This document shows, in pieces, positions 11,269 through 30,765 of a DNA stretch of 32,260 nucleotides (within the stretch, counting starts at the first letter, position 1; the number at the start of each line of letters is the position of its first letter). The notes beneath the pieces are model-generated. The model saw only the letters and a list, made by a program, of their open reading frames with translations. It had not been told where the DNA came from and made no database searches. The stretch lies in the NCBI GenBank assembly GCA_964421145.1, contig CAYQVM010000002.1, positions 1 to 32,260 on the forward strand. The letters run 5' to 3'. A program made the translations under genes and the position numbers. This DNA is from an uncultured Planctomycetia bacterium (GTDB taxonomy: Bacteria > Omnitrophota > Gorgyraeia > JABMQH01).

Positions 11269-11291
11269 AGCAGATTATTCCCGGGTGTCAA

Positions 11292-11534: not shown

Positions 11535-11551
11535 AGTTTCCTCTTTAACAA

Positions 11552-12151: not shown

Positions 12152-12167
12152 AATTTCATCCTCTTCC

Positions 12168-12563: not shown

Positions 12564-12586
12564 AAAAACACCCCCCTCTTAAAAAA

Positions 12587-12772
12587 TCAACTCAGGATTA
12601 TAGCGGTCACAGGGCAATCCTCTGTCGCCTTCTTGCAGGTCTCTTCTGCGGCCTTCGGCACAGATGCGCCGATAACAACCGCCTTGTCCTCTTCCATCTT
12701 GAATACTTCCGGGCATGTAGAAACGCACAACTCGCATCCGATGCACAAATCCTTATCTACTTTTGCTTTCAT
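12587..12772 (-). CDS. Small single-cluster ferredoxin
   Basis: The ORF begins [29 protein letters not shown]... and ends ...CPVTAIILS, with a CxxCxxC...CP pattern. I prefer the start at 12772. The longer track ORF (to 12874) would run through the upstream gene. Confidence 0.8.
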
Positions 12773-13469
12773 TATATGATATCTCCTTCTTAAATTTACT
12801 TTTATCCGCCCCGCATATGGGGCATACCCAGTCATCCGGAAGTTTCTCAAAAGGCGTACCAGGTTTAATTCCACCTACCGGATCCCCGAGGGCAGGATCA
12901 TAGATATAATTACAAACCTCACATCTGTATTTCTGCATAACAACCTCTTCTTTCTTCGGCACCTCATCCTTAATAAACGTTGGCGCTGTCTTTGGTGTTG
13001 TGCCGCGTTTAATAAGGTGATAATAGGCGTAGGTCATGGGCGTGCCGGTCTTAAGCATTTTTAAATCAACCGCCTCGCCCAAAAAAAGCGTGTGGGTGCC
13101 GCAGTCCAGCTTTTTTGTGATCTTTACCTCTAGGAAACACACGGAATAATCCGTTACGACAGGGCAGCCGGAATCAAGGAGGATGTATTTCGTATCCTTA
13201 AATTTGTCCTCGGACCTGCCTGATTTAAAACCGAATTTACCTATGAAATTAAGCGGCGCGTCTTCGCCCAATACCGAAACACTGAAACGGCCGCTTTCCT
13301 CTATATATCCATGCGTCAGGTTCTGTTTGTTAATGCTGATAGCAATGGTCGCGGGTTCGCTCGTTATCTGGAAAACGGTGTTGGCTATCTGTCCGTTCAG
13401 CGCCTTGCCTTTATTGGAAGAAACTATATATACACCGTAACTTATGTTATACAGTACACTTAAATCCAT
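12753..13469 (-). CDS. Flavin-reductase-domain / rubredoxin fusion (high-molecular-weight rubredoxin type)
   Basis: The N-terminal flavin reductase-like domain includes YGVYIVSS...[14 protein letters not shown]. The C-terminal rubredoxin is [17 protein letters not shown]...[16 protein letters not shown]. Confidence 0.85.
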
Positions 13470-14947: not shown

Positions 14948-15444
14948 AACCCCAAATCTGTAGGCGCCCTGCCTAATTCTTTCAAAAGCGCCAACGCCTC
15001 CTCAATCTGTTTATTAACCGGCTTGTCAACATCGGCCCTGTCCTTGTATATCTCGTATTGCCGCCTGTATTTAAGCGGCGTTACATTGAGCATGAATGAA
15101 TTCGCCCCCGAAAGCAGGCCCTCCCGCCGCATCCCCGCATCAACGGTCTCAAGAGCGGTCGTAACGAGTATCTTGGCGTCCGGGACCATCAGCCTTGTAA
15201 TGGCGATGAATTTAAGCATCTCATCTTTTGAAATAATTCCGCTGTCCTTAAGCGGCGTATCCGGATGCGGTATAAACGGCCCGAAGGAATACATCTCGGC
15301 GCCGAATGATTTCGCCAACAGGATGTCTTCTACCAGATCCTCTTTCATCTGGCCTGGCAGGCCCAGGAGGTCTCCGGTGGCGATGAGATATCCCATTTCC
15401 TTAAAAAAGTTTAAATGCGCGATTCTGTCTTCAAATTTATTGCT

Positions 15445-15590
15445 AATGAAGGATGCATATCTGAATGAAATGGACAAATTACCATCACTTCTCCAGTATG
15501 TTCATTAATACTTTTGATTTCTAAACCTATCTCTTCTAATCTACTAATTGATTTTTTATAATCATCAAGAATTACTAATATAAAAATCCT
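15445..15590 (-). other. AT-rich foreign-looking patch inside hydE, carrying an alternative-frame ORF with a primase CHC2 zinc-finger-like motif
   Basis: My hand count gives 18 G+C in the 90 nt at 15501..15590, about 20%, against visibly higher G+C in the flanks. The +1 frame (ORF 15411..15608) stays open across the patch and reads ...RLEEIGLEIKSINEHTGEVMVICPFHSDMHPSLAIN. This resembles the LG.E.K...G.....CPFH.D..PSL.I start of CHC2 primase zinc fingers. Confidence 0.5.
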
Positions 15591-16005
15591 GCCCTCTCTC
15601 GCCCACACTTAAAAAAATCAAAACAGGAAAATCTCTTCTTATCTTTCTGATCAGTTCTTCAAACACATCCGTTGTATAGTAATTATCTTCGCCTGATTGA
15701 AGAACCAATGCTTTAAAGCCAAGCCCGACCGCCTCTTTTACGCTGTCCAGTATCTCCTGAGGTGTCATTCGGTATCGCGGCAAGGTCTTATTTGACTTCC
15801 TTATTCCGCAATAAAGGCAGTCGTTACCGCAAAAATTTGAAAACTCTATTATTCCGTGGATACAGCAGGAATTGCTCAGATTCTTCTGCCTGAGGGCGTT
15901 TGCGGTCTTAAAAAGAAACTCTGCCTCGTTCTTCTTGTCTATATTAAAAAGCTTAAGGGCTTTTTGACTTGTAATAGGGGCAGTTATCCTGCCATCAAAC
16001 TTACT

Positions 16006-16239
16006 CAACTGGCTGTCTATCTTTTTAAGCTCGAAAAAAAGCTCTTTCCATGCCTCAAGCGACTTGGCCGCTTCGTCCCGGCTGACTTTTTGTATTACAA
16101 AGCCGCCCTGGGCATACACATAATCACCCAATGAAAGTTCCAGAAAGTCATTTCTGGCCTTCTTTGCCTCGCCAAAATAATCTATTATGGCAAGGCCGGG
16201 TTTTATGTCTATTATCTTTCCCGGTATAGCGTAGCACAT
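16006..16239 (-). other. HypC/HupF-like domain forming the N-terminus of the HydE ORF
   Basis: MCYAIPGKIIDIKPGLAIIDYFGEAKKARNDFLELSLGDYVYAQGGFVIQKVSRDEAAKSLEAWKEL can be compared with E. coli HypC, MCIGVPGQI...A.VD..G....V.L......G.WVLVHVGFA...I...EA. The essential Cys2 is present. Confidence 0.75.
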
Positions 16240-16240: not shown

Positions 16241-16858
16241 TTACGATTTGAGGACGGCTTCCCTGCGGCACTTCGGGCACATGACCCGGAATCTATCCGC
16301 TCGTCTTGAGTCCGGCTGCCCTTGTGGTTTTTTTGCTTTCTCGGTTTTCGGCACGAGGGATAATTTACTAAGATATGTTAAAAATACGGAGGGATTTGAA
16401 AACATAAGCGGCCCTAATCTATCCGCAACCCATAGATATTGGTCTTTCGGCACAATGATCTCGCCGCAGCACTCGCAGGCAATAAGCTCTTTTTCTATCT
16501 CCTGTTTTAGATCCTGTCTTTTTTCCGTAGTTGCCAGGTCAAACTCCCTTGTAAGCATTATCCCTTTTTCTGTAGGGCAATTCGCCTGGCACTGGCCGCA
16601 GAATATGCACAAATCCATTGTATAAATTAAGGTGCGCGCAGGCTTCCCCTTCTTAATCTCATCCTTAAAGGATAACGCGCCCGATGGGCATACCTGGGTG
16701 CACGCAGCGCAGCCTATGCAATCCTCTTCGTGAAATTCGGGCTTGCCCCTGAAGGCCTCATATGGCTCATGCGGCGCATAAGGAAACTTAGCCGTATACG
16801 GCCCTTTTATCAGCGCCTTTACCGCCTCTTTAAGTTCGCGTAGTTTCGGGTATCTCAT
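16241..16858 (-). CDS. NuoI/MbhN/HycF-like 2x[4Fe-4S] subunit of the membrane-bound hydrogenase, with a Cys-rich C-terminal extension
   Basis: CIGCAACTQVCP and CIFCGQCQANCP are the two cluster motifs. The additional C-terminal CECCGE...CPKCRRE is zinc-ribbon-like. An ATGA overlap links it to the upstream mrpG-like gene. Confidence 0.85.
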   Translation of the reverse strand: MRYPKLRELKEAVKALIKGPYTAKFPYAPHEPYEAFRGKPEFHEEDCIGCAACTQVCPSGALSFKDEIKKGKPARTLIYTMDLCIFCGQCQANCPTEKGIMLTREFDLATTEKRQDLKQEIEKELIACECCGEIIVPKDQYLWVADRLGPLMFSNPSVFLTYLSKLSLVPKTEKAKKPQGQPDSRRADRFRVMCPKCRREAVLKS

Positions 16859-17181
16859 TTTTTATCTTCCGCGTATTTATCGCAAACAGACTTGTCCCAG
16901 AGCTTAATCCCTGACTTATGCGCGCCTCTTGCCAGGGCATGCGCTGAAACGGGTGCGGTCAAAATTATAAACAGAATACAAAGAAGCGCCTTTATGCCTG
17001 CCGCGGTAAACCCTCTGGATAAAAATAGCCCAAGCAAAATACTGCACGTCCCCAAGGTCACGCATTTTGTTGAAGCCTGAAGCCGGTTGTAGACATCAGG
17101 AAGCCTAATCAATCCCAAACAGCCAAAAAAATCAAAAATTAAACCTATCCAAATAAATGCATATACGATAATTTCATTCAT
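16855..17181 (-). CDS. Mrp/Mnh antiporter subunit G homologue (MbhC-like)
   Basis: MNEIIVYAFIWIGLIFDFFGCLGLIRLPDVYNRLQASTK is the MnhG/PhaG signature. I prefer the ATG at 17181; the track ORF starts at 17262. Confidence 0.85.
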   Translation of the reverse strand: MNEIIVYAFIWIGLIFDFFGCLGLIRLPDVYNRLQASTKCVTLGTCSILLGLFLSRGFTAAGIKALLCILFIILTAPVSAHALARGAHKSGIKLWDKSVCDKYAEDKK

Positions 17182-17536
17182 CAAAGTTTCTCCCCTCAAG
17201 ATATTTGGCCAATGCCAGAGTAGAGATAAAACTCTGCAGGGCCCATGCAATGCCGATATCAATATACCAGTCCCTTCCGGTAGAAATTTCTAATATTGCG
17301 CAAAAACCCAAAACCAGGATTCCCAAAATGTCGATTGCCACCGCCCTATCAGCGGGTGTTGGGCCCTTTATGACGCGCCAAAGGCAAAATAATCCGCAAA
17401 ATAATAGTATCAGAAAACAGCGTTTCAAAAAAGATGATTGCCATTCCAATATAGAATAAAATGGGTCAAACCACGCCAGCAAAAATATGCCTATAAGTAA
17501 TACAAGCCCTAACACCCAACGCGCTCTTTTCGCCAT
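17174..17536 (-). CDS. Mrp/Mnh antiporter subunit F homologue (MbhB-like)
   Basis: The small 3-TM protein has RVIKGPTPADRAVAIDILG.... Confidence 0.8.
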   Translation of the reverse strand: MAKRARWVLGLVLLIGIFLLAWFDPFYSILEWQSSFLKRCFLILLFCGLFCLWRVIKGPTPADRAVAIDILGILVLGFCAILEISTGRDWYIDIGIAWALQSFISTLALAKYLEGRNFDE

Positions 17537-18030
17537 TACTCAAAAATCCTCTTTAATACGCCCTCAAATATCTTTACAATTAGCTCGCTTGCCTTCTGGA
17601 CATCTTTGGATTTCACATCAATCCAGTGGATGTATAAAAAACCGTTTTCCTGGTCTATGTCCACGGTCATTGTGCCGGGCGTAAGCGTGATGGAATTCGC
17701 CAGGAATGTCAAACCCGCATCGGTCTTTAATATAGTTTTAACCTTGACAATCCCCGGATTTATTGGCAAATCAGGATGAATCACGCGATAAGCGACATCT
17801 ATATTTGCCTTTATGCACTCCCAAATAAACAGGGGCACATAATACAGAAACCAAAGATAACGGCTGATATGCCTAAATATATGCGGCCTTCTCACAAATA
17901 GATCGCCGGTCATAAAAGCGATGAAACCCGCGATAAGAATCCCGACAACAAGATGCTGGAAATCCAGCGGCCAAGTCAAAAAGGCCCACACCAAAAATGC
18001 AAGTATGAACAATATGGTTTTGCTTTTCAT
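17536..18030 (-). CDS. Mrp/Mnh antiporter subunit E homologue (MbhA-like)
   Basis: Two N-terminal TM helices are followed by ...LANSITLTPGTMTVDID...LYIHWID, which is MnhE-like. Confidence 0.8.
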   Translation of the reverse strand: MKSKTILFILAFLVWAFLTWPLDFQHLVVGILIAGFIAFMTGDLFVRRPHIFRHISRYLWFLYYVPLFIWECIKANIDVAYRVIHPDLPINPGIVKVKTILKTDAGLTFLANSITLTPGTMTVDIDQENGFLYIHWIDVKSKDVQKASELIVKIFEGVLKRIFE

Positions 18031-18031
18031 C

Positions 18032-19519
18032 TTATTTTAACGCGCTAAAAATCGCCTCAGCGTAACCCTTGCCTAACAGCAAAACATTGGCTGCGGATTC
18101 AAGGAATGGCTTAAAATTTGACATAAGCAGTAAACCGCTGATTGCGCAGATAACAGCTAAAACTGTCATTGAAAATCTCATTGGCCAAGGCACCTCTTTT
18201 ATTTTTGACCATACCTCATTAATCTTGCCAAAAAAACTGAATCCGATAAATTTTAAATAATAGGCTAAGGTTATAATACTCACTAATACGGCAATCAGGG
18301 CAAATCCAAAATACCCTGCCTGCACCGCGGCGATAATTATAATCAACTTGCTAAAGAACCCGCCCAATGGCGGAATTCCGGAAATGCTCATGGACCCCAC
18401 AAGGCCGGTATAACCAGTAACTGGCAGGCGATTGTTCAGGCCCCCTAACCTCTTTAAGTCGCGGGTGCCTGTGGAATATTCAATAGCGCCTGAATTTAAG
18501 AAAAGAAGCGATTTAAAAACAGCGTGATTAAACAAGTGGAATAAGGCCCCCAAAATAGCTAAAGGCGTGGCAAGGCCTAATGCGAAAACAATATACCCTA
18601 CTTGACTAATGCTGGAATAAGCAAACATCCTTTTTATATCATGCTGGGCCAAAGCTAATATGGCGCCCACGACCATAGAGATTAGGCCTAAGACCATCAA
18701 TATAAAGAGTATCTTATTATCAACTCCTAGGATATTAAAAAAGACCCTGGCAATAGCGTATACGCCCAATGTCTTGATAAAGACCCCTGAAAGCATCGCC
18801 GAGATTGACGCCGGGGCGGATGGGTGCGCATCCGGCAGCCAGGCATGAAACGGAATAAGCGCCGCCTTTAAACCAAAACCCATTAGAAATAACACTGATA
18901 TAAATATAACCGTTAAACCTCCGCCTTTTTGAGACAGGCTTAATGAGATATCCGCCATATTCAGCGTAGAGGTATAACTGTATAATACAGCAATCCCCAG
19001 AAGCACAAAGCTGGAAGCCACCGAGCCCATAACCGCGTATTTAAACGACGCCTCCAGCTCCTCCGCTTCGGTCCCGAAGGCAACCAGGGCATAACTCGCG
19101 ATAGAGGCGATTTCTAAAAAGACAAACAGATTAAATAAATCGCCGGTAATGATTATCCCGTTCATACCTGCGAGCATCAGCATAAATAAAGTATAAAATT
19201 TACATTTATCGGTATATTTCTCCATGTAGGCTATTGAATATATCGTCACGAGAAGGCTCACTAAATTTACGGTAACAAGCATAAAGGATGTAAGGCCGTC
19301 CAAAACCATGCAGATTCCTATGGGGGGCATCCAGCCGCCTACTTTATATACTAGAACCTTATGCGCTTTAACCAGGGCAATAGAATACAATGAACATGCC
19401 AGTAAAGCGCCCGTGCCTAAATTGGCCAGGACATCGGCCATCCCCTTCGCCTTCTTTGCCAGAAGCGAAATCACGAATGCCGCACCTAAAGGAATAGCCA
19501 CAAACAATGGTAATATCAT
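18032..19519 (-). CDS. MrpD/NuoN/MbhH-like antiporter-type (proton-conducting) subunit
   Basis: The 495-aa polytopic protein has the complex I subunit 2/4/5-family core (...HAWLPDAHPSAPASISAMLSGVFIKTLGVY...FAYSSISQVGYI...FHLFNHAVFKSLLFL). Confidence 0.9.
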   Translation of the reverse strand: MILPLFVAIPLGAAFVISLLAKKAKGMADVLANLGTGALLACSLYSIALVKAHKVLVYKVGGWMPPIGICMVLDGLTSFMLVTVNLVSLLVTIYSIAYMEKYTDKCKFYTLFMLMLAGMNGIIITGDLFNLFVFLEIASIASYALVAFGTEAEELEASFKYAVMGSVASSFVLLGIAVLYSYTSTLNMADISLSLSQKGGGLTVIFISVLFLMGFGLKAALIPFHAWLPDAHPSAPASISAMLSGVFIKTLGVYAIARVFFNILGVDNKILFILMVLGLISMVVGAILALAQHDIKRMFAYSSISQVGYIVFALGLATPLAILGALFHLFNHAVFKSLLFLNSGAIEYSTGTRDLKRLGGLNNRLPVTGYTGLVGSMSISGIPPLGGFFSKLIIIIAAVQAGYFGFALIAVLVSIITLAYYLKFIGFSFFGKINEVWSKIKEVPWPMRFSMTVLAVICAISGLLLMSNFKPFLESAANVLLLGKGYAEAIFSALK

Positions 19520-19854
19520 CCGCTTAATCTCCGAATCTTGGTTATATCAAAAGTGCCGTACTTCTCATAGAGTCTTATGGCAATGGCTACAATCAATGCG
19601 GTAATCGCCAGGCCGATGACGATGGCGGTTAATACCAAGGCCTGCGGTATAGGATCTACCATATTTGAAATTGCCTGATCCTTAGCCAATATCGGCGCGC
19701 GGCCCTGATTGCGGTATCCGACCAGCACAAAAAATAGATTTACCGCGTACTCAATGATCCCCAAACCAATGACAATCTTGATAATATTTCTCTTTCTTAC
19801 GACGCAGTAAAGCCCGATGGAAAATAAGACAAGGCACAACATATATTCAATCAT
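19516..19854 (-). CDS. MrpC/MnhC/NuoK-like subunit (MbhG-like)
   Basis: The 112-aa 3-TM protein has GLGIIEYAVNLFFVL and PIPQALVLTAIVIGLA, which is MnhC-like. Confidence 0.85.
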   Translation of the reverse strand: MIEYMLCLVLFSIGLYCVVRKRNIIKIVIGLGIIEYAVNLFFVLVGYRNQGRAPILAKDQAISNMVDPIPQALVLTAIVIGLAITALIVAIAIRLYEKYGTFDITKIRRLSG

Positions 19855-20303
19855 TCGTCTTTATCCGATCCTTTAAATAATATCAACGCCGCAAAAATGG
19901 CAAACAGGCCCGCCCCCACCTTAAGAGATATAGCGATATTGCATAAGGGGATAATGCCCGCGCTGAATAAATCAAACGGCCTGCCTTTATGCGCAAAGAA
20001 ATTCAAAAAGAAACAACCCCCGCCTATTAAACCGATTAGCGCTATTGACAAAAACATAATACCGCCCAGGCTCTCCAAAATAGATGCGCCAGTTTGAGAC
20101 AATTTTTTTAACGCTGTTTCCCTGCCAAAGGCAAGCATAAGATGAATAAAAGATAGCCCGATAATTACTCCGCCAGCAAATCCGCCGCCCGGCCTAATAT
20201 GACCGTGCAAACCAATATATATGCCGTACAGGAGTATCAGCCCCACGGTAAGGCGTGTGATAGTCTTAACAATTACGGTCATTCCGGTTTCCGCGTTCTT
20301 CAT
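19851..20303 (-). CDS. MrpB/MnhB-domain subunit (MbhF-like)
   Basis: The 150-aa 4-TM protein has HGHIRPGGGFAGGVIIG, the MnhB-domain hallmark. Confidence 0.8.
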   Translation of the reverse strand: MKNAETGMTVIVKTITRLTVGLILLYGIYIGLHGHIRPGGGFAGGVIIGLSFIHLMLAFGRETALKKLSQTGASILESLGGIMFLSIALIGLIGGGCFFLNFFAHKGRPFDLFSAGIIPLCNIAISLKVGAGLFAIFAALILFKGSDKDE

Positions 20304-20818
20304 TTTTTCACTCTTCCTATTTTCCTTATCACCGCCAAGACGCCCATCACCGCAGTAAACAGGACCGTCGCCTCGCCCAAGGTATCATAACCTCTAAAAT
20401 CCAAGATTATGGCAGCGACAATATTAGCCGCGCCTGTCTTTTGCAGGCCCTGCTTAAGATAATCCTGGGCCACCCTCATAATCGGCTGGCCAAAAGGGGG
20501 CAGTTCACTGAAAGCAAAATAGCCAAACAATAAAAATAAGGCAATAAATAGCAATGTAGAAATGGTATTAAAGAACCACCTGCCGTCTGTGATCAAAGGA
20601 AGGTCCTTTTTTATAGTTGCGCGGATAAGTATAATTAGACAAAGAATTTCAACAACGAGCTGGGTTATTGCCAAATCCGGCGCCTTTAAGAGCAAAAAGG
20701 CCAAAGAAAGCCCTAGGCCAACCGCGCCCACAGCGATTACGCTTGAGAGCAGGTCTTCAATCATAACCGCTGCGACAGCGGCAGCAATCATAAACAACAT
20801 AAGTAGTTGCAGTTCCAT
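20300..20818 (-). CDS. DUF4040 (MbhD-like) fused to an MbhE / MrpA-C-terminal-like segment
   Basis: The N-terminal half ...LLKAPDLAITQLVVEI... is DUF4040-like. The C-terminal half has GAANIVAAIILDFRGYDTLGEATVLF, typical of the MrpA C-terminus and MbhE. Confidence 0.75.
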   Translation of the reverse strand: MELQLLMLFMIAAAVAAVMIEDLLSSVIAVGAVGLGLSLAFLLLKAPDLAITQLVVEILCLIILIRATIKKDLPLITDGRWFFNTISTLLFIALFLLFGYFAFSELPPFGQPIMRVAQDYLKQGLQKTGAANIVAAIILDFRGYDTLGEATVLFTAVMGVLAVIRKIGRVKK

Positions 20819-20819
20819 A

Positions 20820-22490
20820 TTACTTCCTTAGCAATACCAAAAATAACCAAATCATCCCTAAAAGCGTCCAGACCAGATACGTTGGCAAGACTCCGTTATG
20901 CAGATACCGAAAGAATCCGCCTATACCGAGCATGAGGTTCTTGCCCTGCTCATATAAGTCAAAAACACCGGCCTCTGCCTTTTTGTAAATACTGGCCAGT
21001 ATCCCGTATTCTTTTATAGTATTGTAAAACTCTGTGCCCGGCACCCTGGTTTCAGGAAGGTCCTTTGTCTCACTGCCGATATACGGGGTATCCCGCCTGA
21101 TAGCAGGTCTTATCCCTTTTAAGCTGAATATAAATACGCCAAGGAGCAGTCCGACAATAATCAACAATGTAGACAATCCCGCATACCACGTCCCGATAAA
21201 ATTTACGCCAGGGATCGCGGGAAGTATAAAATATTTAAGCGGGATTTGATACGCAAACACGCCGAATACGACGCATAGAATCGCCAACGCCGCAGGCGGT
21301 ATCCACATTGCCCAGGAAACCTCATTCTCTGGTTCTTTAGTTTTTCCGTTCTTCGGCTGACCTAAGAACGTAGCATGCATCAACTTCATAAAACTCGCCA
21401 GTGTAAGTCCTGATCCAAACATTGCCGCGGCCAAGCACACTACGGCAACTAAACTGGTGACCTGGTGACCTGGTGACCTATTGACCTGTTGTACGAGCCC
21501 CTGGTAAATCATCCATTTTGAAACAAAGCCGTTAAAAGGAGGAACGCCTGATATGGCCAAGCTTGCGATAAGCGCCACGGCATAAGTAACAGGCATTGTT
21601 TTAGACAGCCCGCCTAATTTGTCTAAATCGGTTGTGCCTGTTTTCTGCTCCACATTTCCTGAGGCCAAAAATAACGCTTGTTTATATATAGAATTATTCA
21701 GCATATGAAATATCCCGCCGGCAATACCGACGGGGTTCCCTGTGCCAATGCCTAAGACCATATAGCCCACCTGCGAAACCGCATGATAGCCAAGAAGCCT
21801 TTCCATATTGTGCTGAACCAAGGCCATCATAACTGCGGCGATTATTGTAAATGCACCAACGAGCATTAAAAATATATTCATGGCCTGATTCATTGTGAAT
21901 AAATTCAAGGACAAGCGGGCCAAAAGATAAATGCCTAATAACTTATCCAATGAAGCGAGTAGATACGCCGCAACCGGGACTGGCGCGCTCTTTGCGCAGT
22001 CGGGAACCCAGGAATGGAACGGCATCGCGCCCGCCTTTGCGAAACAGGCAATGGCTATGCATATATAAGCAACGACTGATAACCGATTGCCTGCAAGCGA
22101 TAGCTGGATCTTATCCATTTGAAAGGTGTTGGTTAAGTGATATATTATGCCTATGCCCAGAAGCATAAGGGCATCCGAGCCGCCTACAATGATAAATGTC
22201 TTTTTCGCAACCAAACTGGAATCCTCATCGCCCATCATTATTAAAAGATATAACGTAAGGCCCAAAAATCCCCAAAGTATAAGGAGTAAAATCATATTGT
22301 TGGCAAGCACCGCGAGGATTGAGGCAACTGCGGTTAATGCGATATAGGCATAATAAGAGAGGTTCCTCTCCCGTCCCCTCATAAACCCTATGGAATAGAT
22401 TAATGTCAAGGCATAAAACAGGGCTATCGCCATTATCACAAAACTATTAAGCGGGTCCAATTTAAACCACGGGTAAAGTTTCATATTCAT
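20820..22490 (-). CDS. NuoL/MrpA-N/HyfB-like antiporter-type subunit (second large pump module)
   Basis: The 556-aa polytopic protein has ...PFHSWVPDCAKSAPVPVAAYLLASLDKLLGIYLL...LGYHAVSQVGYMVLGIG...FHMLNNSIYKQALFL. Confidence 0.9.
   Translation of the reverse strand: MNMKLYPWFKLDPLNSFVIMAIALFYALTLIYSIGFMRGRERNLSYYAYIALTAVASILAVLANNMILLLILWGFLGLTLYLLIMMGDEDSSLVAKKTFIIVGGSDALMLLGIGIIYHLTNTFQMDKIQLSLAGNRLSVVAYICIAIACFAKAGAMPFHSWVPDCAKSAPVPVAAYLLASLDKLLGIYLLARLSLNLFTMNQAMNIFLMLVGAFTIIAAVMMALVQHNMERLLGYHAVSQVGYMVLGIGTGNPVGIAGGIFHMLNNSIYKQALFLASGNVEQKTGTTDLDKLGGLSKTMPVTYAVALIASLAISGVPPFNGFVSKWMIYQGLVQQVNRSPGHQVTSLVAVVCLAAAMFGSGLTLASFMKLMHATFLGQPKNGKTKEPENEVSWAMWIPPAALAILCVVFGVFAYQIPLKYFILPAIPGVNFIGTWYAGLSTLLIIVGLLLGVFIFSLKGIRPAIRRDTPYIGSETKDLPETRVPGTEFYNTIKEYGILASIYKKAEAGVFDLYEQGKNLMLGIGGFFRYLHNGVLPTYLVWTLLGMIWLFLVLLRK
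21454..21493. repeat. 8-nt tandem repeat inside the NuoL-like gene
   Basis: CTGGTGAC occurs three times perfectly (21454..21477), followed by two degenerate units, CTATTGAC and CTGTTGTA. This stretch encodes ...QQVNRSPGHQVTSLV.... Confidence 0.95.
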
Positions 22491-23692
22491 ATAGCGGGCG
22501 ATCCCTTATTTGCCCTTATATTTTCGGTTTTTTCCTGTGACAGTTTTATCAAATCCCAGCCGTCCATAATCTTCTTATCCGTATGCCTATCCAAAACCGC
22601 AAGCCTTTCGGTGCAGCAGTAACAGGGATCCACCGCGGCCAAGGTAATCGCCGCGTCCGAAATGGTGCCGCCGAGCGCGGCAACCTTATTGGAGGCAACG
22701 TTCATGTAGCTTGGCGCGCGTATCTTGTGCCTTATAGGGCGGTTCGTGCCGTCGCTCTTTACATAATGGAAGCACTCGCCCCTTGGCGCCTCAACACGCC
22801 CTATGCCTTCCCCGGGCGGTATATCCTTTACGTTCGCGTCAATATCTCCCTTGGGCATCTTATCTAAGCATTGACGAATAATACCCACAGATTCGTAAAG
22901 CTCGAGGATTCTTACCACGGTCTTGGCAAATATATCCCCGTCTTTTTTGACAATCACGCTCCATTTCACTCTATCATAGGCGCCATATGGGTCATCCCGC
23001 CGCACATCTATGTCTACGCCTGCAGCCCTGGCGGTAGGGCCTACGACACACCAGTCAATAGCCTGTTGTTTATTCAGTATGCCTATGCCCTTAAGCCGCG
23101 CCTGTATCACGGGGTCATCCATTACCGCGCCTTTAAACATATCAACAACAGGTACCAAATCATCAAGCGCCTTCCTTAATATAGGCATGTGCTCATCCTG
23201 TATATCCCGCCTGACGCCCCCAATCTTGCTCATACCGTAATGATTTCGGTTTCCGGAAATCATCTCAAACATATCCAGCACCGGCTCTCTGTAACGCCAC
23301 GCCCACATCCATACGGTGTTGTATCCGATAAAATGCCCTGCTAAACCCAACCACAACAGATGGCTGTGTATCCTCTGCAACTCGTCAACTATCGTCCTTA
23401 TGTAAAGCGCGCGTTCGGGCACGACTGTTCTTTCTCCACCCAGGATATCTTCAACGGCAAGAACGAACGCATAAGGATGGCTTGAGGAACAGATGCCGCA
23501 TATGCGCTCAACCAAAAACGGCACCTGGTCGAAATGCTTGTGTTCGGAAAGTTCCTCTATGCCGCGGTGCATATAACCGAGGACTATATCTATATCTACA
23601 ACCTTCTCGCCTTCCACATAAAGCCTGAAAAGTTCCGGCTCCTCCTGTAGGGGGTGGTATGGCCCTATTGGAATTACAACTTTATGGCTCAT
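22487..23692 (-). CDS. Group-4 [NiFe]-hydrogenase large (catalytic) subunit, NuoD/MbhL/EchE-like
   Basis: Both Ni-Fe ligand pairs are intact. The N-terminal motif is RICGICSSSH and the C-terminal motif is DPCYCCTER. The NuoD-like core includes EAPRGE. Confidence 0.92.
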   Translation of the reverse strand: MSHKVVIPIGPYHPLQEEPELFRLYVEGEKVVDIDIVLGYMHRGIEELSEHKHFDQVPFLVERICGICSSSHPYAFVLAVEDILGGERTVVPERALYIRTIVDELQRIHSHLLWLGLAGHFIGYNTVWMWAWRYREPVLDMFEMISGNRNHYGMSKIGGVRRDIQDEHMPILRKALDDLVPVVDMFKGAVMDDPVIQARLKGIGILNKQQAIDWCVVGPTARAAGVDIDVRRDDPYGAYDRVKWSVIVKKDGDIFAKTVVRILELYESVGIIRQCLDKMPKGDIDANVKDIPPGEGIGRVEAPRGECFHYVKSDGTNRPIRHKIRAPSYMNVASNKVAALGGTISDAAITLAAVDPCYCCTERLAVLDRHTDKKIMDGWDLIKLSQEKTENIRANKGSPAI

Positions 23693-24113
23693 GTTCGTGC
23701 CTCAACGGAAACTTTCCTTCCGGCCAATCCTCGGCCAGAAGCAACCGTTTTAAATCCGGATGCCCCTTGAAATTTATACCCAGCATTTCCCAAATCTCGC
23801 GCTCAATCCACTCTGCGCCCGGAAATATGGCGGCAATAGAATCTATCTCGGGATTTTTCTTATTCTTGATCAAAACGCGCGCAGAGACCATCTCGCCCGT
23901 CTTATCAAAACTAAAATGATACAGTATCTCAAGGCCTCTCGGGGTATCCTCGCCCGTAGCGATTGCGAATCTCAAATTAAGTTCCTTAAACAAAATGGTT
24001 GCTACCTCTTTTATATCCTCTGGCTTGATCGAAAAGTAAACCCTGCGAGGTGAGTGCTCGCGCCAATCGCTTATTTTATTCGCTAACTTTTTCTTGATTT
24101 CGTTCTTTATCAT
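23682..24113 (-). CDS. NuoC/MbhK-like 30-kDa subunit
   Basis: The 143-aa ORF has FPGAEWIEREIWEMLGINFKGHPDLKRLLL, the NuoC signature. Confidence 0.88.
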   Translation of the reverse strand: MIKNEIKKKLANKISDWREHSPRRVYFSIKPEDIKEVATILFKELNLRFAIATGEDTPRGLEILYHFSFDKTGEMVSARVLIKNKKNPEIDSIAAIFPGAEWIEREIWEMLGINFKGHPDLKRLLLAEDWPEGKFPLRHEHEP

Positions 24114-24115
24114 TG

Positions 24116-24544
24116 TTATTGGTTTTTATCTTGAACCTTTTTTATCAGTTTCACCACTGCGGCAATCATCGCCTCCGGCTTGGGCGGGCAGCCAGGAACA
24201 TACGCCGCTACAGGCACCACCTCGTCAACCGGGCACGGGCTGTTATATGAATCCTTAAACATAATCCTGCCGCAGGCGCAGCTGCCTATTGCCATAACTA
24301 AACAAGGCTGAGGCGCCTGGCTATACAACTTCTTTAGCCTATCTCTGGTTTTATAATTAGGCACTCCGGTAACGAGAAGCACGTCCGCATGCCTTACGCT
24401 CCCTACCAACATTATACCAAACCTTTCTACGTCATGCCGCGGAGTAAGGACATCCAATATCTCGATGTCGCAATTGTTGCAAGGCGAGCATGCCGCATGA
24501 AACACCCATAAAGATTTGGTCAGAGCCTTAAGTTTGATACTCAT
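24116..24544 (-). CDS. NuoB/MbhJ-like hydrogenase small subunit (proximal [4Fe-4S])
   Basis: The Cys ligands are present in FHAACSPCNNCDIE, GSCACGR and VPGCPPKPE. Confidence 0.9.
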   Translation of the reverse strand: MSIKLKALTKSLWVFHAACSPCNNCDIEILDVLTPRHDVERFGIMLVGSVRHADVLLVTGVPNYKTRDRLKKLYSQAPQPCLVMAIGSCACGRIMFKDSYNSPCPVDEVVPVAAYVPGCPPKPEAMIAAVVKLIKKVQDKNQ

Positions 24545-24551
24545 ATATGTT

Positions 24552-24663
24552 AAATCCGAATTACCAATGACGAATGACTAAATAATTTTCAATTCTTCAA
24601 TATCCAATTTGGAATTTGGTTATTGGAAATTAATTCGTCATTCGGATTTCGTCATTGGTCATT
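24552..24663. repeat. Structured intergenic repeat element between the NuoH-like and NuoB-like genes
   Basis: AATGAC occurs twice (24566, 24573) and its complement GTCATT three times (24637, 24651, 24658). There is a perfect 11-bp inverted repeat CCAATGACGAA (24564..24574) / TTCGTCATTGG (24648..24658). A second 10-bp pair is AAATCCGAAT (24552..24561) / ATTCGGATTT (24640..24649). The centre has reiterated AATTTGG-like units. Confidence 0.85.
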
Positions 24664-24666
24664 ACC

Positions 24667-25578
24667 TTATTGGCCTATCAACGCTAGCCCTACCGCCGCT
24701 ATGGCCAATAAGGTTACCGGCCCCCAGAAAAACTTCAGCGCCTGATCAATCCTGAGCCGCGGGTTGGTATTTTTTATCAGAATAAAAATAACTAGTATCG
24801 CTATATATTTTAGAATCAACGCCAGCGGGCCCAGGCCGCCGGCCCAGAACAAGCTTATCAAAAACAGCGGCATGATGTAAAGAAGTATCGCCTTTGTCAA
24901 TTTAAATATTGCCAGCGGCAGCCCTGAATACTCTATGAGGGCGCCCGCCATTATCTCCTGCTCTGCCTCAGATGCGTCAAACGGAACAAAACCCAACTTT
25001 GCCTGCATGCAAAATATGGCTATAATAAACGCCAGTATCCCGGACAGCGAAGAGATATTTGAGCCGAAATTCATCTGATGATTCAAAATCTCGCCTATCC
25101 GTATAGCCCCCTGTGATTTAAGTATTATCGCAATAACAGACAATATAAACGGCAACTCATACGCTAAAACCAGTTTCATCTCACGCGAGGCGCCGATAGA
25201 GGCAAGGGGGTTCCTTGAAGACGAGGCCCCAATTATTAAAGATATAGCCGGTATGACCAGAAGATATAAAACAACAATTAAATCACCTATGAAACTTCCC
25301 ATAGGCACGCGGATGGCGGCACCCAAAATCGTCGCCACCAAAATCACGCTTAACAGGCCTATATACGGAGACAATAAAAATGTCACGCCAGCGCCTTCGG
25401 GCACAATGGTCTCCTTACCCAGCAATTTTGCGATATCAACAAAATTCTGATACCATGGCGGCCCCACGCGCCACTGAATGCGCGCGGTAACCTTTCTGTC
25501 AACCCAGCCCGCCATCAACCCTACGCAAGCGGCGAATAGGAAACCAGGAAATATTAAGTAGTTAAACAGTATTTTCAT
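24667..25578 (-). CDS. NuoH/MbhM/HycD-like membrane subunit
   Basis: MKILFNYLIFPGF...DRKVTARIQWRVGPPWYQNF is the NuoH N-terminal signature. I prefer the ATG at 25578, which forms an ATGA overlap with the upstream ferredoxin gene. The track ORF starts at 25614. Confidence 0.9.
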   Translation of the reverse strand: MKILFNYLIFPGFLFAACVGLMAGWVDRKVTARIQWRVGPPWYQNFVDIAKLLGKETIVPEGAGVTFLLSPYIGLLSVILVATILGAAIRVPMGSFIGDLIVVLYLLVIPAISLIIGASSSRNPLASIGASREMKLVLAYELPFILSVIAIILKSQGAIRIGEILNHQMNFGSNISSLSGILAFIIAIFCMQAKLGFVPFDASEAEQEIMAGALIEYSGLPLAIFKLTKAILLYIMPLFLISLFWAGGLGPLALILKYIAILVIFILIKNTNPRLRIDQALKFFWGPVTLLAIAAVGLALIGQ

Positions 25579-26069
25579 GTTTTCTTCGGCGGATGAATAT
25601 CTTCCCGCGACCACTTAAGCGTCTGAACCGCCAGATTATCTCCTATGAAATATATATTTTTCTCTAGGTCCTCCTGAACCTCTTTGATATCAATTGCATT
25701 CTCTGGACAACTCTTGACGCACTTAGGTAATTTTCCAGATATCCCAACACAAAAGTCGCACCGCGAATCCAGATATGAAATAAACTCCTGGGATATTATC
25801 CCGAACGGGCACGCCACCGAACAGGACTTGCAGCTGGTGCAGCGCATCTTGTAACGTTTGATATGACCGTCCGTGGCGCGCTCAAGCGCGTTATGATAAC
25901 ACGAGTTAACGCATGGCGCCTCTTCGCAGTGGCGGCATATTGTAGCGAAAGTGGCGTATTCGCGAAGCGACGTTATGCCGTTATTCTGCGGATGATAAAA
26001 ATATTCGCAGCATACCTTGCATTCGCTACACTTGTCACAAATTTCTAAATTGACGTATAATCTTTTCAT
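25575..26069 (-). CDS. HycB/HydN-like poly-ferredoxin (multiple [4Fe-4S])
   Basis: The 164-aa ORF has four Cys clusters: CDKCSECKVCC, CRHCEEAPCVNSC, CTSCKSCSVACP and CDFC...CVKSCP. Confidence 0.85.
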   Translation of the reverse strand: MKRLYVNLEICDKCSECKVCCEYFYHPQNNGITSLREYATFATICRHCEEAPCVNSCYHNALERATDGHIKRYKMRCTSCKSCSVACPFGIISQEFISYLDSRCDFCVGISGKLPKCVKSCPENAIDIKEVQEDLEKNIYFIGDNLAVQTLKWSREDIHPPKKT

Positions 26070-26084
26070 CGCTGTTTCAGAGAT

Positions 26085-26145
26085 CAGAAGACAGATGTCA
26101 GAAGTCAGATTTTTCTGTCTTCTGTATTCTGTTTTCTGTCTTCTG
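26085..26145. repeat. Structured intergenic repeat element between the AsrB-like and HycB-like genes
   Basis: The 11-mer CAGAAGACAGA (26085..26095) has a near copy CAGAAGTCAGA (26099..26109). The exact complement TCTGTCTTCTG occurs twice (26114..26124 and 26135..26145). Together these can fold as a two-tier hairpin of about 22 bp. Confidence 0.85.
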
Positions 26146-26147
26146 TA

Positions 26148-26963
26148 CTAATCCCATATATCGTGTATATCCTTCAGTTCCTCATACGTGAACACAGGCC
26201 CGTCTTTGCACGCATAGAATTTTCCAATCCTGCAATGGCCGCATTTCCCGAGTCCGCAGGACATATTCTTTTCCATGGATAGATATATGTCGGCCGGTTT
26301 AAACCCTATCTCCAGCAATTTCAATATAACAAATTTCATCATTATCGGCGGCCCGCAAACTATAGAAACCGCGTTGTTCAATTTTACGGGTAAATCCTTT
26401 AATATGGTAGTAACCAATCCTACGTTTCCCTTCCATGCGTGATCTCCGATGTCAACGGTAGTAACCACATCCACCTTTTTCTTCCTCGCCCACTTGGGTA
26501 TCAATTCCTTGTATATAATATCGTTAGGGGTGCGCGCCCCATACCTTAACAATACCTTATTATATCTGTCTATATCTGAAAAAATGGTCAGTAATAAGGA
26601 GCGCAACGGCGCTAATCCAACACCGCCTCCTATTATCAAGACATCTTTACCGGCAAACTTATCCAGCGGATAACCCTTTCCGTAGGGGCCGCGTATGCCG
26701 ACGCTATCATTTCTCCTTATGCTATGCAGTTTGGAAGTAACATAACCTACATTCATTATCGTAATATCCATCTTCTCTTTTATATTCGGATCAGAGGAAG
26801 GGGTAAAAGGCGCCTCGCCCAAGCCGGGCACGGTCAGCTCTATAAACTGCCCTGTCTGGAATGAAAAATCTACCTTAGGCCTTAATACAAAGGTTTTTAT
26901 TGTAGGTGATTCGTCCTTTATATCTTCAATTATTGCCTCAACGGGCTGGTAAATATTTTTCAT
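26148..26963 (-). CDS. FAD/NAD(P)H-binding [2Fe-2S] oxidoreductase subunit (AsrB / sulfhydrogenase-gamma / PyrK-like)
   Basis: The ferredoxin-reductase-type fold has a GQFIEL region, then LIIGGGVGLAPL at the nucleotide-binding site. The C-terminal Cys cluster is MSCGLGKCGHC...YACKDGPVF. Confidence 0.85.
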   Translation of the reverse strand: MKNIYQPVEAIIEDIKDESPTIKTFVLRPKVDFSFQTGQFIELTVPGLGEAPFTPSSDPNIKEKMDITIMNVGYVTSKLHSIRRNDSVGIRGPYGKGYPLDKFAGKDVLIIGGGVGLAPLRSLLLTIFSDIDRYNKVLLRYGARTPNDIIYKELIPKWARKKKVDVVTTVDIGDHAWKGNVGLVTTILKDLPVKLNNAVSIVCGPPIMMKFVILKLLEIGFKPADIYLSMEKNMSCGLGKCGHCRIGKFYACKDGPVFTYEELKDIHDIWD

Positions 26964-28056
26964 CGTGAAGCCTTTTTAAAATATACCTTATATCTATTTT
27001 CCCGGGGCACACGTCAATGCACCTGCCGCAGCCGCAGCATGCCTGATAGCCCAGATTATCTATAAAGAAATCAAATTTTTTCAGATAGCGGTTCCTGAGC
27101 CGCATGTAGCGCATCTTTAAGGGGTTTGCCCCGCCCGCTACCCTGCTGAAATTTTTATACAGGCACCCGTCCCATATGCGCATCCTTTTGGCATTGTCGC
27201 CTTCCGGCTCATCATACAAAAGGAAGCAATGGCAGGTATCGCACATGAACACGCAACCGCCGCATTCAACGCAGGTCTGCATCTGTTCCTGCCATACATC
27301 GGAATTATGCCCTGCAACGACGATCTCCTTTAATTGTTCCTTCTTGGGTATCTTATGATAGGAGAGGTGGTCATCCAGCCGCTTTACCACCGACTCCCTG
27401 TTAAGTTCTTTCCTGCCGACCTGGTTTGAGGTGGCGATGGTCAATATCTCCTTTATATCTGCGATGATTTTCTTCGCCTTGTCCGTAGCTACATCCAGAA
27501 TATACCCATCGCCTATGTTGACCAGATTGAAATCAAAACCTTCGCTCGGATAAGGGTCAATATCAAATGCCCTGCAGAAACAGGCCTCTTTAAATGCCGG
27601 GCAGTCGCTTGAAATAATCAGGGTGCTTTCCCGTCTTATCTTATAAAATTGGTCCTGTTCATTCCCGCCCAAAAACACAAAATCCTGTATCTTTAATGAA
27701 AAGAGGTCACAGTTCTTAAAACCACATATAGCGACCGGTCTCTCCTTTACCTTATTAACCCCTTGGGTGGTGCCCCTGGGGTTGGAATCGGTAAAATAAT
27801 CGCATATCTCTTCCTTCGCATGAGTGAAAAATGACCTCGCGGGCTCTACGGGGTGGTACTCATTAAATACAACATCTTCTCTTTTTATTTCGGTATATTT
27901 TTTTAAGAGGTAATCATTGGTAGGCAGCAGGAATGAATGGTCGCACTTTACCTTCAGGCCCGACTTGGCCTTCACAGGGACATAAAGCTCATAATCCCTC
28001 GCGACCCGGTCGTAAAATTTAAATATATCCTGTGATTCTATGAAATATGTGTCCAT
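26938..28056 (-). CDS. Fe-S subunit (AsrA / sulfhydrogenase-beta-like)
   Basis: CPAFKEACFCRAF and CVECGGCVFMCDTCHCF are present, followed by RIWDGCLYKNFSRVAGGANP and CCGCGRCIDVCPGKIDI. This matches the layout of AsrA and hydrogenase beta subunits. Confidence 0.8.
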   Translation of the reverse strand: MDTYFIESQDIFKFYDRVARDYELYVPVKAKSGLKVKCDHSFLLPTNDYLLKKYTEIKREDVVFNEYHPVEPARSFFTHAKEEICDYFTDSNPRGTTQGVNKVKERPVAICGFKNCDLFSLKIQDFVFLGGNEQDQFYKIRRESTLIISSDCPAFKEACFCRAFDIDPYPSEGFDFNLVNIGDGYILDVATDKAKKIIADIKEILTIATSNQVGRKELNRESVVKRLDDHLSYHKIPKKEQLKEIVVAGHNSDVWQEQMQTCVECGGCVFMCDTCHCFLLYDEPEGDNAKRMRIWDGCLYKNFSRVAGGANPLKMRYMRLRNRYLKKFDFFIDNLGYQACCGCGRCIDVCPGKIDIRYILKRLHDEKYLPAR

Positions 28057-28068
28057 TAGGCCGTAACT

Positions 28069-28086
28069 TTGTGAAATTTTTCACAA
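28069..28086. promoter_or_regulatory. Rex operator
   Basis: TTGTGAA-ATTT-TTCACAA is a perfect match to the TTGTGAA-N4-TTCACAA Rex box. It lies 13 to 30 nt upstream of the first hydrogenase-operon ATG (28056), and rex is encoded immediately upstream. Confidence 0.8.
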
Positions 28087-28121
28087 TCTACCGCAAAAAT
28101 AAAAAATACTTACGTAATAAT

Positions 28122-28148
28122 ATTATATCATTCGGTATATAGTGTCAA
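28122..28148 (-). promoter_or_regulatory. Promoter of the hydrogenase operon
   Basis: The minus strand reads TTGACA (28148..28143), a 15-nt spacer and TATAAT (28127..28122) with an extended -10 TG (TGATATAAT). The Rex box lies downstream of the predicted transcription start. Confidence 0.5.
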
Positions 28149-28184: not shown

Positions 28185-28808
28185 TTATTTTTTATTTCCC
28201 AGAAAATGGGCCAGCTTTTCAAGCTCAATAGACAAATCTATGTTGATTAATTCAACAGAGGCAGGAACGCGCGGCCTTATAGGCGCGAAATTCAGTATTG
28301 ATTTTATCCCGGCCTTTATCAGGGAGTTTATCGTCTCCTGCGCCGCGTCAGCAGGCACAGTCACTATGGCCATCTGCGCGTTTTTCTTCTGGACCGTTTT
28401 CTTCAGGTCGCTGATACGGCCGACAACAATGCCCCCTATCTTTTTCCCTATCTTTTTCGGATCGCTGTCAAGCGCGGCTATTATATTAAAACCCTGCTCG
28501 TGAAAGCCTTTATATGATAAAAGCGCGGTTCCCAGATTCCCGACTCCGACCAAAACTACATTCCAAAGTTTATCTATACCTAAAATCTTGAGTATCTCTT
28601 TTTTTAGATCGCTGACAACATAGCCCCTGCCCGGCGTCCCAAACTGCCCAAAATACGTCAGGTCCCGCCTTATCTGCGCGGCGGTATAGCCGGTCAGCTC
28701 AGAAAGGGCCCGCGATGAGATAACTGCCCTCTCCTTATACGAAATAAGCGCCCTGTAATAAACCGATAACCGCGGTATGACCGAACGTGAAATCTTTGTT
28801 TTCATCAT
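28185..28808 (-). CDS. rex: Redox-sensing transcriptional repressor Rex
   Basis: IPRLSVYYRAL...SSRALSELTGYTAAQIRRDLTYFGQFGTPGRGY is the winged-helix region. The Rossmann motif VVLVGVGNLG follows. Confidence 0.93.
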   Translation of the reverse strand: MMKTKISRSVIPRLSVYYRALISYKERAVISSRALSELTGYTAAQIRRDLTYFGQFGTPGRGYVVSDLKKEILKILGIDKLWNVVLVGVGNLGTALLSYKGFHEQGFNIIAALDSDPKKIGKKIGGIVVGRISDLKKTVQKKNAQMAIVTVPADAAQETINSLIKAGIKSILNFAPIRPRVPASVELINIDLSIELEKLAHFLGNKK

Positions 28809-30532: not shown

Positions 30533-30765
30533 TCCGTTTCCACGATTATTTTCTGGGCCATGCCATAACCCAGGGCAATAACGGCCCTGCCTACCTTGAT
30601 GGCCATAGGCCCTTTGAACACAGAATCGCTCAGCATGGTAATTTCCCTCCCGGGATATATCCCCATGCTGAGTAGGCGGTTCTGCAGGCCGGGCCCGCCT
30701 GAAACTTCCACCACCTTGCCTTTTTGTTTTGTTTTGAGCTTAACTACCGGAATTTTTTTCATCAA
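30529..30765 (-). CDS. feoA: FeoA
   Basis: The 78-aa SH3-like protein has LLSMGIYPGREITM...GPMAIKVGRAVIALGYGMAQKIIV. An ATGA overlap links it to feoB. Confidence 0.88.
   Translation of the reverse strand: MMKKIPVVKLKTKQKGKVVEVSGGPGLQNRLLSMGIYPGREITMLSDSVFKGPMAIKVGRAVIALGYGMAQKIIVETE

Follow-up and report, generated by a model that had tools for sequence, protein, structure and literature searches.

A predicted NAD(P)(H)-binding, AsrAB-type module in Hun, an Mrp-linked group 4 [NiFe]-hydrogenase, in an Omnitrophota genome and its relatives

A 32,260-nucleotide (nt) stretch of contig CAYQVM010000002.1, from an uncultured bacterium placed by GTDB in the Omnitrophota and referred to here as the window, carries on its minus strand sixteen tightly packed genes (28056→16241) behind one promoter, which are predicted to encode Hun, an Mrp-linked group 4 [NiFe]-hydrogenase complex. 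Proteins of the window were assigned with Pfam and NCBIfam profiles, and all positions are those of the whole window unless a related locus is named. Three soluble subunits open the operon: hunA (26938..28056, with its ATG at 28056), a Fer4_22 protein resembling the multi-[4Fe-4S] subunits AsrA and HydB (sulfhydrogenase beta); hunB (26148..26963), which combines FAD_binding_6, NAD_binding_1 and DHODB_Fe-S_bind domains and resembles AsrB and sulfhydrogenase gamma; and hunC (25575..26069), a Fer4_11 poly-[4Fe-4S] ferredoxin of the HycB/HydN/CooF type. They are followed by hunD (24667..25578), a NuoH/MbhM-like membrane subunit; hunE (24116..24544), a NuoB-like hydrogenase small subunit with four conserved cysteines for one [4Fe-4S] cluster; hunF (23682..24113), a profile match to NuoC; and hunG (22487..23692), the [NiFe] large subunit, matching NuoD and NiFeSe_Hases. 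The Mrp-like part comprises a NuoL/MrpA-like antiporter-type subunit (hunH, 20820..22490), a fused MbhD + MbhE (hunI, 20300..20818), an MnhB/MrpB-like subunit (hunJ, 19851..20303), an MrpC/NuoK-like subunit (hunK, 19516..19854), a second antiporter-type subunit, which is MrpD-like (hunL, 18032..19519), and MrpE-, MrpF- and MrpG-like subunits (hunM, 17536..18030; hunN, 17174..17536; hunO, 16855..17181). Last comes hunP (16241..16858), for a NuoI/HycF-like subunit with two [4Fe-4S] clusters. The longest open reading frame (ORF) reaches 25614 for hunD and 17262 for hunO; the true ATG of hunD is probably at 25578, judging from an ATGA overlap and a homologue of 306 amino acids (aa) in the related locus L001, and that of hunO is probably at 17181, the L001 homologue having 110 aa.

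Neighbouring genes overlap or lie no more than 2 nt apart, save at two junctions, where 78 nt and 122 nt intervene, and a sigma-70-like promoter lies ahead of hunA (28115..28148, minus strand), with TTGACA at 28148–28143 and either TATAAT at 28127–28122 (15-nt spacer) or TAATAT at 28125–28120 (17-nt spacer). Junctions and promoter bear out the tight, co-directional packing behind one promoter that an earlier note on this DNA had described, and the profile searches uphold each of its sixteen gene assignments, with their coordinates, strand and order. That note had also held all four Ni-Fe cysteines to be intact, as can be read in the HunG motifs RICGICSSSH and DPCYCCTER. Its sixteen-gene unit stands as regards genes and order, but not as regards its end: 3′ of hunP, the sixteenth gene, there is neither a gap nor a terminator, and a HypC–HydE-like gene begins 1 nt on and is followed by hydG, so that the transcription unit probably extends to 13526. 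Rfam and tRNA scans of the window returned no match.

By gene content, gene order and motifs, this operon is an Omnitrophota copy of Hun, a complex that bears a name but has yet to be purified. The name was given by Glass et al. (bioRxiv 10.1101/536078) to a sixteen-gene hunA–P ‘supercomplex’ found in metagenome-assembled genomes of Atribacteria, Firmicutes, Omnitrophica, Elusimicrobia and Bacteroidetes and in Kosmotoga isolates. These authors likened HunAB to AsrAB, assigned HunC, HunD, HunEFG and HunP to the iron-sulfur and hydrogenase part and HunH–O to the Mrp-like part, took CGIC…CYCC in HunG as diagnostic, and noted that HunG falls in HydDB group 4g yet is distant from other 4g enzymes. 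All of this matches the window (sixteen genes, their order, the likeness of HunAB to AsrAB, the CGIC…CYCC pattern and Mrp-like membrane subunits), with no structural difference; what the window copy adds is an adjacent rex gene, a Rex operator and an appended HypC–HydE-like/HydG cassette. The novelty implied by the earlier note therefore falls away, since the same operon with AsrAB-like subunits had been described. The large subunit does belong to a described subgroup with this input module, namely Hun, although the subgroup is known from genes and not from biochemistry. A search of the literature for hun expression in Kosmotoga found nothing. In their functional model, Glass et al. have reduced ferredoxin donating electrons via HunABC; ferredoxin was likewise the assumed donor for the ‘Group 4g, Mrp-linked’ hydrogenases of Omnitrophota in Williams et al. 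2021, and HydDB lists group 4g as of ‘undetermined role’ and putatively ferredoxin-coupled. Carnevali et al. 2019 (PMC6349859) described an ‘enigmatic’ group 4 hydrogenase in Saganbacteria RX5A, likened its asrA-, asrB- and cooF-like genes to nuoE/nuoF, and placed its nearest relatives in Omnitrophica and Zixibacteria. That cluster shares these three genes and an Mrp-Mbh-type hydrogenase with the window; it has in addition an FdhH-like molybdopterin subunit, which is lacking in the window and in 63 of 64 related loci.

How constant this arrangement is was assessed by scanning one genome per GTDB species, which yielded 80 loci with a HunG 58–82% identical to that of the window; two more were added by direct look-up, and the resulting 82 loci were annotated against the window's proteins. 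Relatives with at least 58% identity occur in Omnitrophota, Elusimicrobiota, Margulisiibacteriota, Atribacterota, Bacteroidales, Cloacimonadota, Planctomycetota, WOR-3, Latescibacterota, Kiritimatiellia, Nitrospirota, Spirochaetota and others. Every locus with enough upstream sequence (63/63, from about 15 phyla) places AsrA-, AsrB- and HycB-like genes, in that order, ahead of NuoH-B-C-D, so the gene order that the earlier note proposed to seek in other genomes is kept across this range. Nineteen loci had no match to AsrA, and 18 of these begin within about 230 nt of a contig end; the exception is L074. HunA and HunB also vary together with the large subunit: in Mantel comparisons of pairwise identities with HunG, r was 0.79 for HunA and 0.81 for HunB, compared with 0.88 for HunP, 0.71 for HunC and 0.67 for HunL (p = 0.001 for HunA, HunB, HunP and HunL). 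Because the order holds in 63/63 loci and the correlations of HunA and HunB are like those of core subunits, HunAB is an integral part of the complex, co-inherited with it as tightly as the core itself.

No other input module accompanies the complex with any regularity. Profile searches found no formate dehydrogenase or CO dehydrogenase in the window, and when such a partner was sought on either side of hun in the 63 loci, the ten largest co-directional or adjacent ORFs that were sampled proved to be unrelated genes or HypF; the genes upstream were otherwise unrelated or hyp genes. These results agree with the earlier note in leaving the AsrAB-like pair as the only dedicated input module, within the window and the ten sampled upstream neighbours of related loci. 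A molybdopterin-domain protein stands directly ahead of hunC in L074 alone (1/64 related loci), a variant mentioned both by Glass et al. (bioRxiv 10.1101/536078) and by Carnevali et al. (PMC6349859). Other departures from the common layout were a PhoU-domain gene between hunG and hunH in two close Omnitrophota relatives (L001, 11206–11820; L002, 6808–7422), a third MrpD-like gene after hunG in loci of the WOR-3 and Endomicrobia types, and an Mrp half that is detached or divergently placed in L024, L048 and L072. The variant loci listed in full are L001, L002, L015, L068, L069, L074, L075, L082, L024, L048 and L072.

The two front subunits have their closest likeness in a soluble, nucleotide-linked hydrogenase. 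HunB matched the gamma subunit of Pyrococcus furiosus sulfhydrogenase I (SHI; PDB 9nez_C) with E = 2e-51 over 232 residues, and HunA matched the beta subunit (PDB 9nez_B) with E = 7e-35. Fifteen cysteines of HunA are conserved at ≥90% across the family. Among 64 HunB sequences, the cofactor motifs are conserved at the same level, comprising the FAD motif GEAPFTPSS, RGPxG, the pyrophosphate loop GGGxGxAP and CGPPxM, as are the four cysteines of the [2Fe-2S] cluster. HunB may accordingly be said to keep a predicted FAD site, a predicted NAD(P) site and a [2Fe-2S] cluster, and the nucleotide site on which the earlier note had made its reading depend is borne out by these motifs. All PDB and NCBIfam homologues of HunB are annotated with a pyridine nucleotide: SHI is NADPH-dependent, SHII NAD(P)-dependent, and dihydroorotate dehydrogenase B NAD+-linked. 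NfnA and AsrB use NAD(H). As judged from these motifs and homologues, the evidence favours an NAD(P)(H) site in Hun over the published ferredoxin donor. Position 144 of HunB, in the loop after beta-2, is always lysine or arginine and aligns with an arginine of SHI gamma, which prefers NADPH. A call of NADP from this residue was considered and dropped, the NADH-binding NfnA of Thermotoga maritima also having G-A-R-T there. HunA and HunB are not AsrA and AsrB in the strict sense: no AsrC is encoded in the window, and both score below the NCBIfam equivalog cutoffs (AsrB 227 bits against 289; AsrA 112 against 323).

From HunAB, a chain of iron-sulfur proteins appears to lead to the hydrogenase, and it resembles that of formate hydrogenlyase (FHL). 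The best PDB matches of HunC were HycB4 of the hydrogen-dependent CO2 reductase (HDCR) and HycB of FHL; no fewer than two [4Fe-4S] motifs are conserved in it, and the window copy has 16 cysteines. HunP was closest to HycF (7z0s_F, 78 bits, compared with 52 bits for MbhN). Its 12 conserved cysteines comprise eight for two clusters and an extra Cys4 motif, which lies in a C-terminal extension of the form CxxC...CxxC (C128, C131, C194, C197), is conserved in ≥90% of 63 family members, and may be the site of a further metal or cluster, or else a docking element. HunC and HunP thus resemble, in sequence, the HycB/HycF wire of FHL, and the soluble arm as a whole looks like an FHL in which FdhH has been swapped for a sulfhydrogenase-type NAD(P)H module, set on an Mrp-type membrane arm.

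To judge by their motifs and profile matches, HunE, HunF and HunG make up a hydrogenase module with a complete predicted Ni-Fe site, and HunD with HunH–O a membrane arm of two antiporter-type subunits plus small Mrp subunits. The HunG pattern CGIC...CY[C/S]C was found in 82/82 relatives, as CYCC in 72 and as CYSC in 10. More than 100 relatives share 81–95% identity with HunG, and those with a named source are mostly labelled Omnitrophica or Omnitrophota. Among solved structures, HunG was closest to MbhL (290 bits), followed by HycE (260 bits) and the sulfane reductase MBS (181 bits); retention of all four Ni-Fe cysteines, which are invariant in the family, together with this weaker MBS match, sets it apart from the MBS/Mbx/Ehr enzymes.

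The membrane-bound hydrogenase of P. furiosus (MBH, group 4d, PDB 6CFW) shares with Hun the Ni-Fe site, a NuoB/C/D/H/I-like core and an Mrp-derived arm. Its 14 subunits, MbhA–N, include no HunABC and one large antiporter-type subunit, however, its gene order is different, and ferredoxin docks directly on its NuoI-like subunit, whereas Hun counts HunABC as three additional soluble subunits, has two large antiporter-type subunits, and has a HunP nearer to HycF than to MbhN. Escherichia coli FHL (group 4a, PDB 7Z0S) joins its soluble dehydrogenase to the hydrogenase through a HycB–HycF-type wire, as Hun appears to do, and the Thermococcus Fdh-Mfh-Mnh complex (group 4b) has both such a wire and a full Mrp module; Hun differs from both in having an AsrAB-like flavoprotein pair in place of formate dehydrogenase, with no linked formate or CO dehydrogenase catalytic subunit in the window. 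The beta and gamma subunits of SHI (group 3b, PDB 9NEZ) match HunA and HunB and have the same cofactor motifs, but SHI is a soluble heterotetramer with group 3 catalytic subunits and no membrane arm, unlike Hun, whose likeness to group 3b is confined to these two homologues, HunG being of NuoD/group 4 type. In complex I, as predicted for Hun, a flavoprotein module oxidises NAD(P)H and an Fe-S chain leads to a NuoB/D catalytic pocket, with pumps of antiporter type; its input is NuoEFG and its acceptor quinone, whereas in Hun the input is of AsrAB type and the predicted acceptor H+ at the Ni-Fe site.

The promoter region of the window operon is marked by a predicted operator for Rex, a redox-sensing (NADH/NAD+) repressor. 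A perfect palindrome, TTGTGAAAAATTTCACAA (28069..28086, unstranded), lies between the −10 element and the hunA ATG and is the sole zero-mismatch match in the window; rex itself (28185..28808, minus strand; 243 bits, above cutoff) is directly upstream and co-directional. With the operator consensus TTGTGAAnnnnTTCACAA in its promoter region and rex encoded, hun is a predicted member of the Rex regulon. Across the family, boxes with up to two mismatches occur within about 400–420 nt upstream of hunA in 18/63 loci, compared with 0.7% of random 420-nt windows, an enrichment of about 40-fold; the 1.33 Mb of locus sequence holds 28 boxes in all, with 19 of them within 420 nt upstream of hunA and three more upstream of adjacent rex genes. 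The rex gene adjoins hun in 15/63 loci, with labels including Clostridia, Atribacterota, Bacteroidales, Pirellulales, Sedimentisphaerales and Omnitrophota. Since Rex derepresses at high NADH/NAD+, the predicted link would tie Hun expression to an excess of reductant and argues for the H2-evolving direction, as supportive rather than specific evidence. In the window, feoA and feoB, recognised by eye, stand directly upstream of rex (28805–30765, minus strand); the stop of feoB and the start of rex overlap, so that rex may share a transcript with these iron uptake genes.

The likeliest of the readings weighed here, though we hold it to be no more than evenly balanced, is that HunB is where Hun binds NAD(P)(H), with a wire from there through HunA, HunC, HunP and HunE to the Ni-Fe site. 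HunAB would occupy the place that FdhH has in FHL, and electrons would pass from NAD(P)H to FAD and the [2Fe-2S] cluster of HunB, through the clusters of HunA to HunC, HunP and HunE, and so to the Ni-Fe site of HunG; ferredoxin might also enter at HunC or HunP. At standard potentials, forming H2 from NAD(P)H costs energy (−320 mV against −414 mV, about +18 kJ/mol), and the reaction would for that reason be coupled to ion flux through the membrane arm, which would let ion-motive force pull it forward; at very low H2 it would be near equilibrium and reversible. Rex would repress hun and release it at high NADH/NAD+, the role of the complex being to vent pyridine-nucleotide electrons as H2. The full reading, put forward tentatively and with somewhat more doubt than belief, makes Hun an NAD(P)H:proton oxidoreductase coupled to ion-motive force, a hydrogenase-type complex I analogue whose AsrAB-type module was recruited independently of NuoEFG and which, under Rex control, would vent NAD(P)H electrons as H2 in fermenters and syntrophs of many uncultivated phyla, at the cost of membrane potential or, where H2 is very low, with its conservation.

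Several points weigh against this reading. The presence of two or three antiporter-type modules suggests a bigger free-energy span than that between NAD(P)H and H2, and such a pump count seems to fit transfer from ferredoxin to H+, or from ferredoxin to NAD(P)+, better. The invariant lysine or arginine at HunB position 144 is common to SHI gamma and NfnA and does not discriminate between NAD and NADP. A recognisable Rex box occurs in only about 29% of loci and in none of the closest Omnitrophota relatives (L001–L009), and Rex regulons in some Firmicutes also hold ferredoxin-dependent hydrogenases; it is for these reasons that the Rex evidence is not specific. Finally, Hun complexes are known from genes alone, and the sole published functional model has reduced ferredoxin donating via HunABC (Glass et al., bioRxiv 10.1101/536078).

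The alternative that survives best, though we consider it somewhat unlikely, has both substrates in use, with ferredoxin entering at HunC or HunP and NAD(P)(H) binding at HunB. Both might then be donors to H2, or the complex might be an ion-pumping ferredoxin:NAD(P)+ oxidoreductase, Rnf-like and as once proposed for Mbx, with H2 as an overflow valve. Sites of both kinds are present, the span from ferredoxin to NAD(P)+ (about 100–180 mV) suits a two-pump arm, Rex control suits a redox-balancing valve, and the rare molybdopterin subunit between HunB and HunC shows that the wire can serve more than one partner. Yet HunB is of the non-bifurcating PyrK/AsrB/SHI-gamma type with no bifurcating flavin subunit, no ferredoxin gene is linked, and the reading as a whole is pure inference.

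Ferredoxin as the sole donor, the published model, we consider unlikely. Electrons would pass via HunABC to the Ni-Fe site, H2 would be released, and the Mrp-like arm would pump H+ or Na+ outward as in Pyrococcus MBH, leaving the nucleotide site of HunB irrelevant or structural. Besides having been proposed by Glass et al. and agreeing with the putative ferredoxin coupling of HydDB group 4g, this model gains from MbhL being the closest solved structure to HunG and from the larger energy span between ferredoxin and H+, which several pump modules would suit. It leaves unexplained, however, why the FAD and NAD(P) motifs of HunB should be conserved at ≥90% across about 15 phyla, and a flavoprotein of the ferredoxin–NADP+ reductase type would seem needless as an acceptor for ferredoxin when HunC and HunP provide poly-ferredoxin entry. 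Characterised AsrAB homologues, moreover, use NAD(P)(H), which sits ill with AsrAB as acceptors of electrons from ferredoxin.

Operation in the opposite direction, as an H2:NAD(P)+ oxidoreductase that pumps ions, for example in support of Wood-Ljungdahl metabolism, appears distinctly improbable. Reduction of NAD(P)+ by H2 is exergonic at high H2 (about −18 kJ/mol standard, from established values), and the Wood-Ljungdahl pathway is reported (Williams et al. 2021) from some Omnitrophota that carry this hydrogenase; but the window has no Wood-Ljungdahl genes, H2 levels in situ are as a rule too low, and derepression of Rex at high NADH would be the opposite of what an enzyme producing more NAD(P)H calls for. 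That HunAB is instead a module for reducing sulfur, polysulfide or sulfite, as was once suggested for sulfhydrogenase beta/gamma and AsrAB and as its homology to AsrA, AsrB and sulfhydrogenase subunits might invite, is very improbable indeed, given the lack of AsrC or a siroheme subunit in the window and related loci, AsrA and AsrB scores under the equivalog cutoffs, and a Ni-Fe site that is intact, unlike that of MBS.

Directly downstream of hunP, most hun loci have a gene of about 150–160 aa, which in L001 (18185–18667) is for a HycI-type maturation protease. A HycI homologue was sought across the window and none was found, despite a 38-aa C-terminal extension on HunG; the slot after hunP is taken there by a cassette of two minus-strand genes. 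The first (14944..16239) encodes a fusion of a HypC domain, beginning MCYAIPGK with its cysteine at position 2, to a HydE-like radical-SAM protein, and the second, hydG (13526..14947), overlaps it by 4 nt and encodes a radical-SAM tyrosine lyase (522 bits against a cutoff of 312) that keeps the CX3CX2C and C-terminal CX2CX22C motifs. In the window copy the fusion is broken: about 40 codons (approximately 15440–15564, minus strand) have been swapped in frame for an unrelated AT-rich stretch with seven stop codons. In a shifted frame this stretch reads ...VICPFHSDMHPSLA..., which resembles a CHC2 zinc-finger (primase-type) motif. A second copy, as a repeat or mobile element might leave, was sought in the window and the 82 loci, and none was found; the stretch could be the mark of a pseudogene, an insertion remnant or an assembly artefact.

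Five Omnitrophota loci have the HypC–HydE-like fusion 3′ of hun (the window, L004, L019, L086 and L087), and it is intact in the latter four. It is found with a HydG-like gene directly after hunP, in either order, in L004 (7756–10803), L086 (7381–11176) and L087 (8637–11182); in L019 about 860 nt, including a short ORF, separate hunP from the fusion (18684–19985), and a HydG-like gene was not detected. Cassette or fusion positions were also recorded in L083–L085 (about 9001–11800). The fusion architecture occurs elsewhere in Scalindua/Brocadiaceae, Nitrospirota, Saganbacteria, Margulisiibacteriota and several DPANN phyla, and in 3/3 other contexts examined (Scalindua, Aenigmarchaeota and Saganbacteria) a HydG-like gene came after it, and neither HydF nor a hydrogenase gene lay within 9 kb of those three cassettes. 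A search of the literature for HypC–HydE fusions found no mention of them. Given that HypC chaperone domains belong specifically to the maturation of [NiFe] enzymes, and that HydG is the source of CO and CN bound to Fe, the cassette may, speculatively, represent a radical-SAM route to the Fe(CO)(CN)2 unit of [NiFe]-hydrogenases in anaerobes.

Two further gene groups, both on the minus strand, were noted in the surroundings. Downstream of hydG lies an oxidative-stress and redox cluster (11292–13469 and 9072–9774), in which a flavin reductase–rubredoxin fusion (12753–13469) and a rubrerythrin (11552–12151) were confirmed by Pfam; a desulfoferrodoxin-like protein (12168–12563), a small ferredoxin and a truncated, 80-aa thioredoxin-reductase-like fragment (11292–11534) were recognised by eye. 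A nickel supply cluster also stands near the hydrogenase (1404–5848), with NikR (5435–5848), an OprB-type porin (4016–5425), a CbiM/NikM-PDGLE fusion (2954–3991) and, by eye, CbiQ-type (2129–2941) and CbiO-type (1404–2132) components.

Hun is among the most widespread uncharacterised energy-converting hydrogenases, occurring in anoxic sediments, groundwater and digesters, and metabolic reconstructions now treat it as ferredoxin-driven. What is new here is family-wide evidence for HunAB as an integral, predicted NAD(P)-type module, together with the Rex link and the FHL-like wiring, which challenge the ferredoxin-only model and make it testable; handles for doing so are the conserved motifs of HunB, the Rex operator and Kosmotoga, which is in culture and reported as a host. 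If Hun does exchange electrons with NAD(P)H, it would represent a second, independent attachment of a pyridine-nucleotide module to the complex I/Mbh scaffold, and the redox balance, H2 production and syntrophy of these lineages would be modelled differently.

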